From: a phage
Direction: 5' to 3' (one strand)
Sequence record: PZ049726.1
DNA length: 6,125 nucleotides
Positions 2,292 through 5,811 of the stretch are shown here, piece by piece (the first letter of the stretch is position 1; each line of letters starts with the position of its first letter). Below the pieces are notes generated by a model. The model saw only the letters and a program-made list of their open reading frames with translations. It had not been told where the DNA came from and searched no databases. Made by a program: the position numbers and the translations under genes.

Positions 2292-2393
2292 AAATCCTCC
2301 ATACGTTTTTTAGTTGTAACGACAACATAGATTAAGCTTAATTTGTTCTTTAACGCCTACAATAGAAGCTAAAAAGGCGCATAAAAAAAGAAC

Positions 2394-2522
2394 TTATAAA
2401 AAGTCCTTACCGTATTCTTTAAACCATTTATCTAGTTTTGCATTACTTTCACCATCTATCCAATTTCTAAGTTCCTCGCCTATTTGGTCGAGTTCTTTTT
2501 CAAGCACTGGTATAGTAGTACA
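2394..2522 (-). pseudogene. Orphan 3' end of a head-morphogenesis (SPP1 gp7 / Mu F family) gene: copy B of the duplicated last 42 codons plus stop
   Basis: Hand translation: CTTIPVLEKELDQIGEELRNWIDGESNAKLDKWFKEYGKDFL*. It aligns codon for codon with 3283..3411. It has no start codon or RBS of its own. The reading frame upstream is closed by the HNH stop 6 codons earlier. Confidence 0.75.
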
Positions 2523-2550
2523 TATAATAAAAGCACCTAATTAAAGGTGC
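2523..2550 (-). terminator. Candidate intrinsic terminator at the end of the HNH gene
   Basis: On the minus strand: GCACCT-TTAATT-AGGTGC (6-bp stem, 6-nt loop, 2533..2550; the HNH TAA stop spans the stem-loop boundary) followed by TTTTATTATA (2523..2532). The stem is short, so it is probably weak or leaky. Confidence 0.4.
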
Positions 2551-3224
2551 ATATCCGATAAATATTTATAAAATTGTTTTCTAGTTGTTTTTTCACCTTT
2601 ATATTTGTTGTGAAATTTATTATGACAACTTACACAAAGAGTTACTCCATTGTCTAAATCTAATCTTAAATCTTTATGAGTATCATAGCTATCCAGATGG
2701 TGTGCCACTAAATTGTATCCATCATCTTTGGTTTTACCACATATCTTGCAAGTATAATCATCTCTTTCTCTAACACTTTTACTCCAAGACTTATATCCAA
2801 ATATTCCACGATTTTCAATTCTATGATTTTCGGATATATTGTTATCATATCTTCCATTGTTTTTACCACTATTAGCTTTAGATATTTTCCTTTTATACTC
2901 TTTCGTCTGCATTACTTTTCTAAGATTATCCCTGCTTTCAGTAGAGTTTAAATAAGTATTGGCTATGTTTTTAGAATTATTTACAAATGCTTCTCTGTCG
3001 GATTTATCTGTATTCTTCCACCAATTATCAAAAGCTTCTTTTCTGCTTCTTGTATTAATTCCTAATTTTCTTAATTGTCTTGATAAATTTCCACTATCAC
3101 AATTAAGTTCTTTAGATATCATAGGTATTGACATTTCTTCATCAATGTAAAGTTTTTTTAATACCTCCGAATATTCCATTCCATATCTTTCTTCAACTTC
3201 GATCATTCTCTTAGATTTTCTCAC
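2541..3224 (-). CDS. HNH homing-type endonuclease (N-terminal HTH, NUMOD3-like linker motifs, C-terminal HNH nuclease)
   Basis: The C-terminus WSKSVRERDDYTCKICGKTKDDGYNLVAHHLDSYDTHKDLRLDLDNGVTLCVSCHNKFH is a textbook CxxC...HH...N...CxxCH HNH motif. The preferred start is GTG at 3224..3222, 6 nt after AGGAGG (3231..3236). The track's start at 3263 has no RBS. ATG at 3206 is an alternative start. Confidence 0.85.
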   Translation of the reverse strand: MRKSKRMIEVEERYGMEYSEVLKKLYIDEEMSIPMISKELNCDSGNLSRQLRKLGINTRSRKEAFDNWWKNTDKSDREAFVNNSKNIANTYLNSTESRDNLRKVMQTKEYKRKISKANSGKNNGRYDNNISENHRIENRGIFGYKSWSKSVRERDDYTCKICGKTKDDGYNLVAHHLDSYDTHKDLRLDLDNGVTLCVSCHNKFHNKYKGEKTTRKQFYKYLSDMHL

Positions 3225-3251: not shown

Positions 3252-3280
3252 ATTATAGTACACAATCCATTAGGATTCAA
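3252..3280 (-). promoter_or_regulatory. Candidate sigma-A type promoter for the HNH gene
   Basis: On the minus strand: TTGAAT (3280..3275), a 17-nt spacer, then TATAAT (3257..3252). It lies in the short gap between the copy A stop (3283..3285) and the HNH RBS. The -10 box sits inside the 12-nt palindrome CTATAATTATAG. Confidence 0.5.
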
Positions 3281-3282
3281 GT

Positions 3283-3438
3283 TTAAATAAAGTATTTCCC
3301 ATACTTTTCAAACCAACTATCAAGCTTCGGACTTTGCTTTCCATTAACCCAGTCTTTCAATTCTTGCCCAATTTCATCAAGATTCTTTTCTAGTACGGGT
3401 ATTGTAGTGCAAAGTCCATTCGGGTGTCCAACGGCAAA
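3283..3438 (-). other. Out-of-frame 3' coding segment of the head-morphogenesis gene (conserved HPN..C motif plus copy A of the duplicated tail)
   Basis: The frame shifted -1 from ORF 3390..4220 reads FAVGHPNGLCTTIPVLEKNLDEIGQELKDWVNGKQSPKLDSWFEKYGKYFI*. This is the expected family C-terminus (HPN, Cys, ..P). That frame is closed just upstream by TAA TAA (3439..3444). Confidence 0.75.
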
Positions 3439-4220
3439 TTATTAACTGAATAAACAACTCCATTCCTACTCCTACTCATACACAATTCACAAGTTCTATG
3501 ACTACCTGAAGTAAGCCATTTAATTCCAGCAACAAACGGATTTCTTTGGCAACTTCTCTTCTGTGCTTGTTGAAAAGTATGATTTATTGCAGTACGGGCA
3601 AGTCTTTGAGCGTTATAATCAACTTGGGTAGAAGCTTTACGATATGTAGTCCTCCATTTCAAAGACTTTCTAGCACTAGGATTCAAATACACTTCCAAGT
3701 CCTTAGCAATTTCATACATAGACTTCTTTTCTGCAATTCCTTGAGCTAGAATATAGTCAATATCCTTTTCAAACTTCTTAGTGCATGCCCATATTCTTTT
3801 GCTTAAGCCTAATCTATCTTTGTAAAGCTTCCCAGACATTATTTCATTAACTGCAGCTTGAGGAACTTTAGCAAACATATCTATAAAGGTATCAGCTAAA
3901 TCTAAGCTAAAGGATTTTTTTATATCGAAGAGCATATTTAGTTGAGTTTCGTTGGCTATATTAGCAATCTCTATTAAATCCTTACTTAGTCTCTTATCAA
4001 TAGAATTAGAGAAAGTTGAAATATCTGTTTGTAAGGATTTTAATACACTTCTTACATATCTTTCGGATAAACTATCCTTTGATACTTTTGAAAGCTTCTT
4101 AGATGTATTTAAGTACATTTGCTTATATATATCTTTTATTTCTCTTTGAAGCTTCTTTGTTAGATGTATCTTTTTCTTATTAGCTTCTAGGCATAACTTT
4201 TCGTATTCTGATTTATTCAT
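3390..4220 (-). CDS. Phage head-morphogenesis / minor head protein, SPP1 gp7 / Mu F family; truncated by a frame discontinuity as it stands
   Basis: 276-aa ORF. It contains LSKRIW, YNAQRLARTAINHTFQQAQ (family RTE-like segment) and SHRTCELCMSR..NGVVYSV (CxxC...G). The in-frame tail LDTRMDFALQYPY* lacks the family's terminal motif, which appears in the -1 frame instead. It sits after the portal gene, as in SPP1. Confidence 0.85.
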   Translation of the reverse strand: MNKSEYEKLCLEANKKKIHLTKKLQREIKDIYKQMYLNTSKKLSKVSKDSLSERYVRSVLKSLQTDISTFSNSIDKRLSKDLIEIANIANETQLNMLFDIKKSFSLDLADTFIDMFAKVPQAAVNEIMSGKLYKDRLGLSKRIWACTKKFEKDIDYILAQGIAEKKSMYEIAKDLEVYLNPSARKSLKWRTTYRKASTQVDYNAQRLARTAINHTFQQAQKRSCQRNPFVAGIKWLTSGSHRTCELCMSRSRNGVVYSVNNLPLDTRMDFALQYPY

Positions 4221-4405: not shown

Positions 4406-5811
4406 TACTCAACTACCTCCTCAATCATTCCTATGCTATCTTCTAACATAGTCTTTTCTAATTGTATTTGCTTAAGTTCTTCATCAGCTATTTCATCAGT
4501 AGCATTTACCCACTTCTTAATATAAGTTTTCTTACTCATTGTCTGAGTATTGACTTGTTGCATATCAATAGTTTTTTCAGTATCTTCATCCTCTTGTAAT
4601 GGATATTGATTTTCTACAACTACCTCAAATTCTTCTAAGATAGGTAGCTTAGTTATGTTATAAACCTCTATCATTTCAAGAGTTGCTTTTATCATCCACT
4701 CAAGAGCAGGTCTCCAAGCTTTCATTTTCTCCTCGCACCTAGTAATAAGTTGCCAGTACAAAGCTTTCATAGACTTACCACTTGTCATCATACCTTTTAA
4801 ATCTTGGTTGTTGATTAAAGGTATATTTAAAACCTCATGCATATCAGATTTAATTCTATTAAGTGTGTTTTCCATACGCTCATTATAATTAAAATCAGTT
4901 TCTACAGTTCCTATTTGTGCTTGTTTTCCTTCACTTGCTGTTTGGTCAGTTGCTACATCCCAATATGCTCCTGGTTTTATTTTGAAATGTTTAGATGCAT
5001 CGGGATCTACATCTGTTCCATAGATAATCCTATTCATTCCTTTTCTAAGAGCATCTATATCCTCACTAGATAGTTTATTGTAAGCAACAGCATTGTCGCA
5101 TAGTTCTTCAACATCACTTTCTCCCTTTAAGTCTCCAGAAAGTCCATCATTTAATATTACATATGCTGGTATACCTGTGAGCTTTAAGTCAACATCTTTT
5201 GAAATAATTTCAATAGGAGTTCCATATCCATCGTATATACCTTCATTGAGAATACATTTGTCTTTAACCATTTCGTATTTCTGTTTCCATATCCTCTGTT
5301 CATTCTTAGTTTCTGCTTGGTTAAGTTGATAGAAGAATATAATCTTTCGTAGTTCATCTACTCTATCATCAAAAGGCTCATACACAAACTCTAAGCTAGG
5401 CACAAACATTATTCTTATTGTCTTAGTTATTGTATCTGCATGAAGCTTAATAGCAACTCTTTTACCTATGAAACAATCTCTAGCTGCTTTAATAAGTTTA
5501 TCTTCAAATAAGTTCTTTTTTAGAAGTTTTTTAATGTATTTATTTATTTCTTCTGCTTGATCCTTTAATGTATCATCGTCAACTGCAATTGAGAATGTTG
5601 GAGCTTTACCAAATAGGAATCTAGCTTCTTCTTTAATAAGCTTCTTTATATAGTTGACCTTCTTTTTAGTTGGAACATAATCCTCTTCATCAACTACCCA
5701 ATCTTGACCTGGCCCCTCATAAATATCATAAAGGTTTATAATATCACTATGTTCTTTAATTATCTCACTCCCGTAAAGTCCTTCAAGTTCAGATTTTATT
5801 ATATTTATCAT
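4405..5811 (-). CDS. Phage portal protein, SPP1 gp6 family
   Basis: 468-aa ORF directly downstream of the terminase large subunit. RBS AGGAGGTGA lies upstream of the ATG at 5811..5809. Its size, position and acidic C-terminus fit SPP1-type portals. The family call rests on synteny and overall resemblance, not a search. Confidence 0.88.
   Translation of the reverse strand: MINIIKSELEGLYGSEIIKEHSDIINLYDIYEGPGQDWVVDEEDYVPTKKKVNYIKKLIKEEARFLFGKAPTFSIAVDDDTLKDQAEEINKYIKKLLKKNLFEDKLIKAARDCFIGKRVAIKLHADTITKTIRIMFVPSLEFVYEPFDDRVDELRKIIFFYQLNQAETKNEQRIWKQKYEMVKDKCILNEGIYDGYGTPIEIISKDVDLKLTGIPAYVILNDGLSGDLKGESDVEELCDNAVAYNKLSSEDIDALRKGMNRIIYGTDVDPDASKHFKIKPGAYWDVATDQTASEGKQAQIGTVETDFNYNERMENTLNRIKSDMHEVLNIPLINNQDLKGMMTSGKSMKALYWQLITRCEEKMKAWRPALEWMIKATLEMIEVYNITKLPILEEFEVVVENQYPLQEDEDTEKTIDMQQVNTQTMSKKTYIKKWVNATDEIADEELKQIQLEKTMLEDSIGMIEEVVE

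Follow-up and report, generated by a model that had tools for sequence, protein, structure and literature searches.

A heritable single-base deletion in a phage gp7-like head gene travels with an HNH endonuclease cassette and may protect the enzyme's target site

The window (the whole stretch of DNA analyzed here, 6,125 nucleotides of phage sequence record PZ049726.1) carries a portal gene at 5811-4405 (SPP1-type, PF05133, E=1.6e-33), then a 60-aa open reading frame (ORF), then a gene for an SPP1 gp7/Mu F-like minor head protein, with the scaffold and major capsid genes downstream of the latter. The gp7-like gene matches PHROG 1657 ('head morphogenesis') with E=1.7e-56, and its product, 276 aa as now read, is 87% identical to an intact relative of 310 aa (P0001). 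Scores against the Pfam family Phage_Mu_F (PF04233; cut-off 29.6 bits) are 17.5 bits for the window ORF and 17.1 bits for the restored protein, compared with 27.4 bits for P0001 and 30.1 bits for another relative, P0113. The 3' part of the gene belongs to a cassette that consists, in order, of a lesion at the 5' edge, a foreign C-terminal tail, an HNH endonuclease gene (3224-2541) and a terminator. The features of the region, all on the minus strand, are as follows.

3390..4220 (-): SPP1 gp7/Mu F-like minor head (head morphogenesis) gene as now read (ORF list; PHROG 1657)
3435..3455 (-): left boundary of the co-converted tract (sliding identity and alignment)
3425..3426 (-): place of the lost nucleotide, where GAC(Asp)|CAC(His) has become GACAC (compared with intact alleles)
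3407..3423 (-): putative endonuclease recognition core CCGAATGGACTTTGCAC, codons P-N-G-L-C, directly 3' of the lesion
3283..3426 (-): tail A, the foreign C-terminus, HPNGLCTTIPVLEKNLDEIGQELKDWVNGKQSPKLDSWFEKYGKYFI plus stop in the -1 frame (translation)
3252..3280 (-): sigma-A-type promoter of the HNH gene (-35 TTGAAT, 17-nt spacer, -10 TATAAT)
3258..3274 (-): another sequence resembling the target, CCTAATGGATTGTGTAC, within the HNH promoter's spacer
2541..3224 (-): free-standing HNH homing endonuclease gene, 227 aa (Pfam)
2533..2550 (-): intrinsic terminator and cassette end, GCACCTttaattAGGTGC then TTTTATTATA
2394..2523 (-): copy B, the stranded resident tail, (C)TTIPVLEKELDQIGEELRNWIDGESNAKLDKWFKEYGKDFL*, with the amino acids of the tail of intact P0001

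Frame 0 of the minus strand reads ...RTCELCMSRSRNGVVYSVNNLPLDTRMDFALQYPY* and stops at 3392-3390, and the -1 frame, closed upstream by TAA TAA (3444-3439), reads FAVGHPNGLCTTIPVLEKNLDEIGQELKDWVNGKQSPKLDSWFEKYGKYFI* to a stop at 3285-3283. An earlier note on this DNA had proposed that one missing base divides the body of the gp7/Mu F-like gene from its HPNG.C tail, and translation bears this out, together with the frame-0 stop at 3390, the run of the -1 frame to 3283 and the upstream TAA TAA closure on which the proposal was built. All intact homologues read ...NNLPLDHPNG, the family protein continuing as NNLPLDHPNG.CTTIPV, so that frame 0 must be correct through GAC (3428-3426). Leu-Pro-Leu-Asp (3437-3426) lies in frame 0 and the tail frame is correct from His (CAC, 3426-3424), and the frame of the window, compared with intact homologues, switches exactly between D and H (an intact allele, L004, reads gat cat ccg aat ggg at this site). 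Because C3426 ends the correct part of frame 0 and also begins that of the tail frame, what has been lost is a single C of GAC|CAC, in the interval from 3427 to 3425. The break at 3426/3425 is a real loss of one nucleotide, and it is inherited. The shift had been placed within 3427..3438, which the alignment with intact homologues does not support, and a fourth T at 3436-3438 had been offered as the repair; we rule out the latter, since it would yield ...NNFAVGHPNG (FAVG in place of the LPLD found in every homologue), and it also lost the weak Pfam match at an E-value cut-off of 0.01. The expected length of the restored protein, 312 aa, is correct, also with the C restored. The break does lie close to the repeat boundary (~3411), at 14-15 nt upstream of it rather than 16-27.

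The 276-aa product comprises 261 native residues and 15 out-of-frame residues (TRMDFALQYPY after LPLD), ending, if there is no recoding, in ...LPLDTRMDFALQYPY; an exact look-up of this product found it not to be on record. Across 111 intact homologues the motif CxxC...PLDHPNGxCTxxP is contiguous, with no variation at C244, C247, P261, D263, N266, G267, C269, T271 and P273 and at least 90% conservation at H264 and P265, in agreement with the earlier assignment of the HPNG.C...P tail as the C-terminus of this family; in the window a change of frame at 3426/3425 divides the motif. Of the best 120 homologues, three are cut at the lesion site and all the others, 117, have 304 aa or more. The C-terminal tail is predicted to be structurally integral to the protein: in an AF2 model a strand (270-275) pairs with another (230-236) and is followed by two helices, and the block-mean pLDDT over residues 250-310 is 70-92. 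On this model the 276-aa protein would be without the His and the last Cys of CxxC...H...C and without the strand and two helices of the C-terminal domain, and since the tail is also among the most conserved parts of the family, its loss should be costly.

The same deletion, in the identical sequence GAC^ACCCGAATGG, occurs in five datasets: the window (WIN), an NCBI assembly (GCA_025671425.1, L001), two Logan assemblies (ERR9974868, L010; ERR11525787, L011) and an IMG/VR prophage (2541047517_000002, L078/L082). Carriers are 100% identical from ~3440 to 3283 while their gene bodies differ by up to ~16% (76-100% identity per 45-nt window among WIN, L010 and L001). Tail A is 100% identical to L010 and L001 over ~3440-3300 and only 56-71% identical to L004, an allele of the resident type that lacks the cassette. 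Upstream of the left boundary the window resembles L004, which is free of the homing endonuclease gene (HEG), and downstream it is identical to other cassettes of its own type (type A; letters B to F denote types of relatives). L004 matches the window upstream of ~3455 and again in copy B (98.7% identity between 2523-2292 and L004 5804-6035), and the right junction of the cassette, 2524|2523, is common to the window, L003 and L010. The HNH gene is present or absent at this one locus among close relatives, with L004-L009 empty and the window, L010 and L003 filled, and the duplicated tail (copies A and B) is confined to the window/L010/L003 clade, other families having a single tail. Two lesioned alleles without the HEG, L001 and L078, have a chimeric A/B tail, which shows that recombination between the tails removed the HNH gene there and left the lesion in place.

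The HNH gene starts with GTG (3224-3222) behind an AGGAGG ribosome binding site (RBS) at 3236-3231, and its promoter agrees with the consensus at 10 of 12 scanned positions. Its product has an N-terminal HTH-like region, a NUMOD3 motif (21.4 bits, cut-off 20.4) and a C-terminal HNH motif (PF01844, 34.6 bits, cut-off 21.4). The closest solved structure is that of an HNH endonuclease (5h0m, E=2.4e-5), the nearest relatives in GenBank phages are annotated as HNH homing endonucleases, and the protein is 100% identical to P0121 in two Logan assemblies. We also considered a group I intron or other self-splicing element carrying the endonuclease and rejected it: besides a homologous coding tail, the interval has both a promoter and a terminator, and Rfam gave no intron match at E<=1 over the whole window (neither of the two sub-threshold matches at this E-value is an intron). 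Searches for further copies returned little. No near-identical DNA was found in GenBank phages, where tblastn gave at most 41% identity for the gp7-like protein and 48% for the HNH protein, in no case with the cassette; a one-genome-per-species scan found neither the HNH gene nor the type A lesion; and a scan of JGI metagenomes did not find the type A site, lesioned or undeleted. Scans of IMG/VR for this site returned the lesioned L078/L082 contig alone, so an undeleted progenitor was not found there. A word-based protein search with tail A gave no candidates, and missed P0001 too despite several common 5-mers, so this negative carries no weight.

The lesion of the window is one of a family of such changes. 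In six of seven related HNH families the frame is broken at the same codons, in forms that comprise a 1-nt deletion, a 1-nt insertion (CCC T AAC in L003), three 6-nt inserts of the structure CCN-stop-CCN (CCT TGA CCT in L002, L036 and L037; CCG TAA CCT in the P0129 family; CCG TGA CCA/G in the P0131 family) and one 11-nt insert (P0125 family); the seventh, the P0132 family, keeps its frame and reads DHPSGLCC, departing at the otherwise invariant N266. This coincidence of lesions at one site, with six interruption forms in relatives, is far beyond chance. Many alleles that lack the HNH gene are still lesioned. Because the loci were mostly retrieved via HNH or truncated proteins, their proportions are biased; a less biased set of 32 IMG/VR contigs, drawn from one phage group only, contains the TGA lesion in 16 (just four of these with the HNH gene), intact DHPLGRC in eight and a Pro->Ile change at the CC of the insert position in eight, with the HNH gene in none of the 16 unlesioned alleles. 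Counted from the His codon, nucleotide diversity is 4-17% (E family) and 0-8% (D family) at positions upstream of about -30 nt and drops to 0-1.3% in windows of 30 nt from the lesion through the tail, HNH gene and terminator, and this collapse around the cassette is a sweep signature. The tails of all lesion types are open, with pN << pS between types (polymorphism within types, at two changes per type, is too sparse for a selection test, and dN/dS of the 40 codons 5' of the site was set aside because of unaligned indels).

We infer a recognition sequence and a cut site from the boundaries of the converted tract and from motif recurrence. The window has two occurrences of the motif CCNAATGGANTNTGYAC, where 0 are expected, one directly 3' of the lesion and one in the spacer of the HNH promoter; each of the seven HNH families has a target-like counterpart upstream of its HNH gene, and the lesions of the relatives are all at the 5' edge of the putative core. 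The conserved P-N-G-x-C codons are probably what the endonuclease recognizes, and the copy at 3258..3274 is a possible operator. The reading we favor, which we consider probable while leaving real room for doubt, is that the deletion alters the target site of the nuclease, moves with the endonuclease as part of a mobile cassette and probably makes the allele immune to it. The cassette comprises a short converted patch, the lesion, the foreign last ~47 codons (tail A), the promoter, the HNH gene and its terminator; on this reading, its copying into the conserved LPLD-HPNG-C codons of a resident gene like that of L004 left the resident tail downstream as copy B. The lesion lies at the 5' edge of the probable recognition codons and most likely persists because it keeps the cassette's own or a superinfecting enzyme from cutting the allele that carries it; such an alteration would always accompany the HNH gene and would outlast its loss. 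The truncated gp7 may be tolerated, since SPP1 can do without its gp7, at a cost in infectivity (PMC6316719), and has only about 3 copies of it per virion (PMC4493119), or it may be carried as the price of a selfish element that drives itself through the population. Some observations weigh against this reading: a 1-nt change of spacing alone may not stop a modular HNH enzyme, immunity could really stem from the many synonymous differences nearby, no cultured phage with the cassette was found among GenBank phages, and the open tails with pN << pS are more in keeping with a tail that is still translated than with simple truncation.

That the deletion is an artifact of sequencing or assembly is hardly credible: single-base indels are the commonest assembly error, but this one lies outside a homopolymer (GA[CC]AC) and is found unchanged in two independent Logan assemblies as well as in an NCBI assembly and an IMG/VR prophage, so the homopolymer error once suspected does not explain a lesion that recurs in L001, L010, L011 and L078/L082. 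A scar of imprecise repair, left when the endonuclease cut this genome during homing, would account for a lesion no more than ~10-30 nt from the left edge of the converted tract, and the non-homologous right junction (2524|2523) shows that illegitimate joining happened once; that junction, however, is also present in L003 and L010, and the lesion with identical flanks occurs in four other datasets, including other gene bodies, and so pre-existed in the donor and was copied. No undeleted GACCAC donor of type A was found in viral, metagenome and genome scans, and we regard a fresh scar as very unlikely. The suspected tie between the break and homing is thus real, but the lesion, being already in the donor-type cassette and moving with it, is not damage made on entry into this genome. 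Random inactivation in a decaying prophage, unconnected with the endonuclease, is improbable in our view: the sequences do come from prophages or metagenomic contigs, and the allele was found in no cultured phage, but six lesions and two unusual substitutions fall on the same four codons in different phage groups, full-length homologues predominate with the few short ones cut at the lesion site, the other structural genes of the window are intact and the lesion is identical in backgrounds up to ~16% apart. Drift of inactivating mutations could be permitted by the dispensability of gp7 in SPP1, about 25% of virions without gp7 being infectious (PMC6316719). It might also be that a gp7 ending after LPLDHP is useful, or that the two parts of the gene work separately. 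The P0125-family tail can be called as a 52-aa ORF of its own whose GTG start overlaps the stop (TAGTG), types C and D have ATG or TTG 9 nt past the stop, and lesioned alleles are common in the IMG/VR set; the splitting of Aeh1 NrdA by MobE is a precedent. The window's tail frame, however, has no ATG, GTG or TTG from 3438 to the conserved Cys and no RBS, types E and B are likewise without a start codon, and the break falls inside a putative metal-binding motif, so adaptive truncation or a split gene seems a poor prospect.

A further possibility is recoding, in which a -1 (or +2) shift at or near GAC ACC CGA restores the full-length protein, in parallel with the bypass of T4 gene 60, the relatives achieving the same by stop-hop, 11-nt hop or +1 slip. 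The insertion relatives fit the layout of a hop, with a Pro take-off codon, a stop and a Pro landing codon; the product of the 6-nt hop in type E, DHPLGRC, is the sequence of the intact allele, the 11-nt hop from CCG to CCA in type F restores the frame, and CCC TAA C of type B resembles the shift-prone CCC_TGA (PMC10861913). Types B, D, E and F have a hairpin of 6-8 bp (GGTCAAGG/CCTTGACC) whose end lies 2-3 nt short of the take-off codon; it includes a compensatory change (GAG/CTC) and a G.U pair, one of each, and is found in no intact allele. The open tails with pN << pS are as recoding would have them, few copies of gp7 are needed per virion (~3 in SPP1; PMC4493119), and in E. coli single-base deletions undergo detectable non-programmed -1 suppression (PMC10861913). 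Against this, no natural in-frame stop-hop is on record (PMC5009743), the CCN flanks follow automatically from insertion of a hexamer with CC at its end after the CC of a Pro codon, and types C, D and E may descend from one ancestral insert and would then not be independent. In the window itself the junction GAC ACC CGA has no stop, Pro or matched codons, re-pairing of tRNAs one base back from GAC, ACC or CGA is poor, the upstream hairpin is missing, and reading by eye of the 3438-3390 overlap found no X XXY YYZ heptamer; a downstream 9-bp stem (3417-3409/3337-3329), 5 nt after ACC, has z = -1.26, with 26 of 200 shuffles folding at least as well. Recoding is plausible for the insertion types and without support in the window, and as an account of the window's deletion we think it unlikely.

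The reading of the lesion as a protective change carried by a homing cassette has its closest parallel in T4 gene 60, whose coding gap and MobA cassette were reportedly described by Bonocora et al. in 2011. In both, a free-standing HNH-type endonuclease goes together with a change that interrupts the ORF where the target gene is highly conserved, and alleles inherit this change along with the endonuclease and retain it once the endonuclease is lost; in T4 the change protects from self-cleavage where nearby substitutions alone fail. The T4 insert protects against MobA and is carried by all phages that have the endonuclease and by several that have lost it (Manning and Atkins, bioRxiv 10.1101/2022.08.31.505936; PMC5009743). 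Like the inserts of the relatives, gene 60 has the stop codon first, flanked by matched codons; matched take-off and landing codons occur in types C, D, E and F, and in overlapping form in B, whereas the window has neither, its form being a 1-nt deletion. The interruptions here are of 1-11 nt in at least six forms, unlike the 50 nt of gene 60, and the endonuclease lies after the gene rather than splitting it as MobA does. In Allomyces atp6, according to what is said to be the finding of Paquin et al. in 1994, an endonuclease ORF brings a replacement 3' end while the original 3' end stays downstream, the same order as copy A, HEG and copy B, but the foreign tail is in frame and functional there and out of frame in the window. 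I-TevI, as Edgell et al. reportedly found in 2004, represses itself via an operator resembling its homing site, and the target-like sequence at 3274-3258 in the window enzyme's own promoter may be a comparable operator, although I-TevI is a GIY-YIG enzyme and the window enzyme an HNH enzyme. The combination of HNH and NUMOD3 in a gene sporadic at one locus, and a near-clonal tract with sharp boundaries in diverse genes, are features shared with the co-converting T4 Seg/Mob and SPO1/SP82 I-HmuI types (PMC10448857). Known HEG immunity is mostly ascribed to substitutions or to the insertion itself; here its proposed source coincides with frame-breaking indels in an invariant protein motif. The relatives' CCC UAA C and CCN-stop-CCN, with tRNA-Pro in the P site and a slow stop in the A site, recall shifty stops and stop-hops such as prfB CUU UGA C, CCC_UGA and the synthetic stop-hops of Weiss et al. 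1987 (PMC5009743), a likeness in which the window site has no part.

We tentatively raise a wider possibility, which we think has a modest chance of being correct: that this HNH cassette family is a second, more varied natural system of the gene 60/MobA type, in which protective indels would be undone in translation by stop-hops over CCN-stop-CCN (TGA or TAA), by an 11-nt hop and by a +1 slip at CCC-UAA-C, with help from the upstream hairpin, the -1 of the window being offset by nothing more than a low level of frameshift suppression, which would suffice for a protein of few copies per virion. If true, the relatives' hops would be the first natural in-frame stop-hops; as it stands the relatives are candidates for natural stop-hopping, which is undocumented according to reviews (PMC5009743). 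The natural allele series at one site (intact, substituted, -1, +1, +6 and +11) could be used to map the specificity of an uncharacterized HNH enzyme and to ask whether indels protect from cleavage where synonymous changes cannot. What this adds to the earlier note is that the lesion of the window belongs to a family of frame-breaking changes at the same codons next to homologous HNH genes. What looked like a fault of annotation now flags an active selfish element, a homing endonuclease can spread changes that break the frame of a structural gene through phage populations, and 'truncated' MuF/gp7 genes adjoining HNH genes should not be dismissed as errors or as signs of dead prophages.

The one-nucleotide deletion at 3426/3425 in the head gene of the window is part of a homing-endonuclease cassette, and belongs to a series of lesions that recur at the probable target site. 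The surrounding DNA is a siphovirus head module with all genes on the minus strand:

5811-4405, minus: SPP1-type portal
between portal and gp7-like gene, minus: 60-aa ORF
start 4220, minus: SPP1 gp7/Mu F-like 'head morphogenesis' gene
-35 TTGAAT at 3280, -10 TATAAT ending 3252, minus: sigma-A-type promoter of the HNH gene
GTG at 3224, minus: HNH endonuclease gene (227 aa; AGGAGG before the GTG; Pfam HNH 34.6 bits, NUMOD3 21.4 bits), after the gp7-like gene
2550-2533, minus: hairpin terminator, end of the cassette
2524/2523, minus: right junction of the cassette (...TTTTATTAT / ATGTACTACT), common to the related loci L003 and L010
between HNH gene and scaffold, minus: two small ORFs, one of the gp49/66 family
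1730-1116, minus: scaffold
1095-145, minus: major capsid

In the gp7-like gene, frame 0 gives ...RTCELCMSRSRNGVVYSVNNLPLDTRMDFALQYPY*, ending in a stop at 3392-3390; TAA TAA at 3444-3439 shuts the -1 frame, which then runs FAVGHPNGLCTTIPVLEK...KYFI* to 3285-3283, and translation confirmed the earlier note's description of these two frames. A search with a restored protein as query gave 1,822 relatives; the 120 best include 117 of 304 aa or more (mostly 310-311 aa), and most span the entire query. Intact relatives read ...NNLPLDHPNG(K/L/M)CTTIPV.... Aligning 111 intact homologues shows C244, C247, P261, D263, N266, G267, C269, T271 and P273 to be invariant, and H264 and P265 to be kept in at least 90%. 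Given the LPLDHPNG reading of intact relatives, frame 0 is right through Leu-Pro-Leu-Asp (GAC, 3428-3426) and the tail frame is right from His (CAC, 3426-3424); judged by these homologues, the missing base is one C of GAC/CAC. The interval previously proposed for the shift (3427-3438) and the repair suggested with it, a fourth T at 3436-3438, are about ten bases off, because with that repair LPLD would become FAVG. Between the CxxC motif and the lesion, only the window has an in-frame tandem duplication (AGTAGG AGTAGG, 3465-3476, minus; Ser-Arg-Ser-Arg in place of Ser-Arg), which L001-L004, L010 and L036 lack.

A sequencing error, one of the options raised earlier, is contradicted by the same deletion, GAC^ACCCGAATGG, in four other datasets:

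L001: Paraclostridium sp. AKS46, GCA_025671425.1
L010: Logan ERR9974868
L011: Logan ERR11525787
L078/L082: IMG/VR 2541047517_000002

Per 45-nt stretch, these loci match the gene body of the window at 76-100% identity, yet from ~3440 to ~3300 identity among the window, L010 and L001 is 100%.

L004, an intact allele without the endonuclease (protein P0001), agrees with the window upstream of ~3455 and, at 98.7% identity, over 2523-2292, which comprises copy B (the resident gene's own stranded tail) and the downstream intergenic region; its identity to tail A (the foreign gene end preceding the HNH gene) is only 56-71%. Between the two matching stretches lie the lesion and tail A, followed by promoter, HNH gene and terminator. 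L001 and L078 keep the lesion but not the HNH gene and have a chimeric A/B tail, indicating that the gene was lost via recombination between the two tails. Copy B is limited to the clade of the window, L010 and L003; in the other families the endonuclease just comes after the stop codon of the gene. The A and B cassettes are 100% identical in the catalytic 3' third of the HNH gene, the terminator and copy B (window 2400-2790 against L003 ~3790-4175), versus 62-92% in its 5' two-thirds (the putative DNA-binding part) and likewise in tail and lesion; the HNH gene itself is therefore mosaic.

A different HNH gene (PF13392, HNH_3, 208 aa) lies between large terminase and portal in L001 (2659-3285) and L002 (2614-3240) and is missing from L004, and the stretch of the window from the upstream ORF to the portal start at 5811 has no room for a 208-aa ORF; it looks like a second sporadic endonuclease of the same head module. 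Matches to Rfam GP20-b below the gathering score of 36.2 (window 2302-2370, minus, 24.2 bits; L038 2822-2890, 28.5 bits) sit within a conserved intergenic element, upstream of the scaffold in L038 and of the small ORF 2291-2010 in the window, whose sequence (..GCGCCTTTTTAGCTTCTATTGCAGGCGT..) recurs by eye with variation in L003, L010, L032, L036 and partly L022.

The HNH protein has ~14 homologues (44-100% identity), and we compared the loci of seven HNH families at the LPLD-HPNG site.

Site alleles of the seven HNH families
Family A (window): -1
Family B (L003): +1, GAC CAT CCC T AAC GGG
Family C (L036/L037, also L002, which lacks the endonuclease gene): CCT TGA CCT AAT
Family D (P0129 family, 10 loci): CCG TAA CCT AAT
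Family E (P0131 family, indexed in 94 blocks): CCG TGA CCA/G TTA
Family F (P0125 family): 11-nt insert, CCG TAGTGAAG CCA AAT
Family G (P0132 family): gene intact, 311 aa; site DHPSGLCC, with the Asn that is invariant elsewhere substituted

In family F (L032, 2775-2950) the gene is broken into two ORFs of 251 and 52 aa, where the stop of the first is overlapped by the GTG that opens the second (TAGTG), a 'gene in pieces' version of the same lesion.

Two copies of the motif CCNAATGGANTNTGYAC are present in the window (expected number, 0):

3423-3407, minus: copy 1, directly 3' of the lesion
3258-3274, minus: copy 2, CCTAATGGATTGTGTAC (P-N-G-L-C if translated), inside the 17-nt spacer of the HNH promoter (3252-3280)

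All seven families have a counterpart of the promoter copy upstream of the HNH gene, that of family E apparently changed in parallel with the target (..TTGG.. rather than ..AATGG.., by eye). From these matches we infer that the P-N-G-x-C codons form the putative recognition core of the endonuclease, and the promoter copy (3274-3258) may be a candidate autoregulatory operator, like that of I-TevI.

The endonuclease would target the most conserved codons of the gene, and carrier alleles would need to avoid cutting; the marks of such an escape would be indels bordering the recognition core on its 5' side, or changes to residues that are invariant elsewhere. As carriers must escape, the lesion is inherited together with the HNH gene and, after its loss, stays, as what would be a resistant allele; on these comparisons the lesion is most likely a putative immunity to the endonuclease. 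Phage T4 is described as having the same pattern of co-inheritance and persistence in its gene 60 insert with MobA, where the insert, and not substitutions alone, blocks nicking, and where the insert is present in all phages with the endonuclease and in several now without it (bioRxiv 10.1101/2022.08.31.505936; PMC5009743). The earlier note's link to homing holds up, but random decay, like sequencing error and its placement of the base, does not.

The insertion-type alleles look designed for translational recoding. A Pro take-off codon, a stop and a Pro landing codon are so arranged that a 6- or 11-nt hop would give exactly the intact protein, type B CCC TAA C resembles the +1-prone CCC_TGA (PMC10861913), and in types B, D, E and F, but not in intact alleles, a hairpin of 6-8 bp with one compensatory change ends 2-3 nt 5' of the take-off codon; in all types the tails are open, with pS of 0.46 to >1 (saturated) versus pN of 0.18-0.43. 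However, CCN flanks would come automatically with the insertion of a hexamer ending in CC after the CC of the Pro codon, types C, D and E possibly descend from one ancestral insert, and no natural stop-hop is documented (PMC5009743). All of the insertion-type signals are missing from the window allele: it lacks a slippery heptamer and the upstream hairpin, its junction has neither stop nor Pro codon, and its downstream stem is unremarkable (z = -1.26). The hairpin (GGTCAAGG...CCTTGACC) is formed by the codons V-(K/E/R)-(D/N)-(L/I)-P-L-D, with a compensatory GAG/CTC pair in family E and a G.U pair in family F, and type C has a duplicate of its 3' arm as the 6-nt insert TTGACC. It is located as follows:

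L022: 2756-2782
L012: 2742-2768
L003: 3095-3121
L032: 2757-2783

The 10 loci of family E differ pairwise by 2-17% upstream of about -30 nt relative to the His codon; from that point to the end of the terminator, across lesion, tail and HNH gene, most 30-nt windows are at 0-0.7% (maximum 1.6%). Family D has the same pattern. By this measure, a near-clonal cassette whose 5' edge holds the lesion has entered diverse gene backgrounds and spread. In the E phage group, among 32 IMG/VR contigs (most 20-42 kb), 16 carry the TGA lesion, only four of them with the HNH gene, which is found in 0 of the 16 unlesioned alleles; these divide equally between intact DHPLGRC (GAC CAT CCA CTT GGC; 8/32) and Pro->Ile (CAC ATA; 8/32). 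Every lesioned allele has the converted patch RFKVEDIPLD upstream, and the tails of these alleles are recombinant with native tails, every one open. Pro->Ile falls exactly at the CC of the inserts and so may be a resistance substitution. The Pro of the HPNG motif is nearly invariant, and the Pro->Ile alleles (L062-L065, L067, L068, L072 and L076, at ~2200-2215) are endonuclease-free.

Intact P0001 was modelled with AlphaFold2 at a mean pLDDT of 72.8 (70-92 as block means over residues 250-310). In this model the tail contributes a strand (270-275) paired with strand 230-236, and two helices; the window product is predicted to be without this strand and both helices, and without the His and last Cys of the motif. 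Some homologues (P0032, P0035-P0037, P0045) have C-terminal extensions of 125-195 aa beyond the conserved tail, consistent with the MuF-fused toxin proteins known from temperate phages (PMC5576092). SPP1 gp7 is dispensable, yet only ~25% of gp7-less virions are infectious (PMC6316719), and there are about three copies per virion (PMC4493119). By analogy, the truncated gp7-like protein could therefore be tolerated, or be borne as the price of a driving element.
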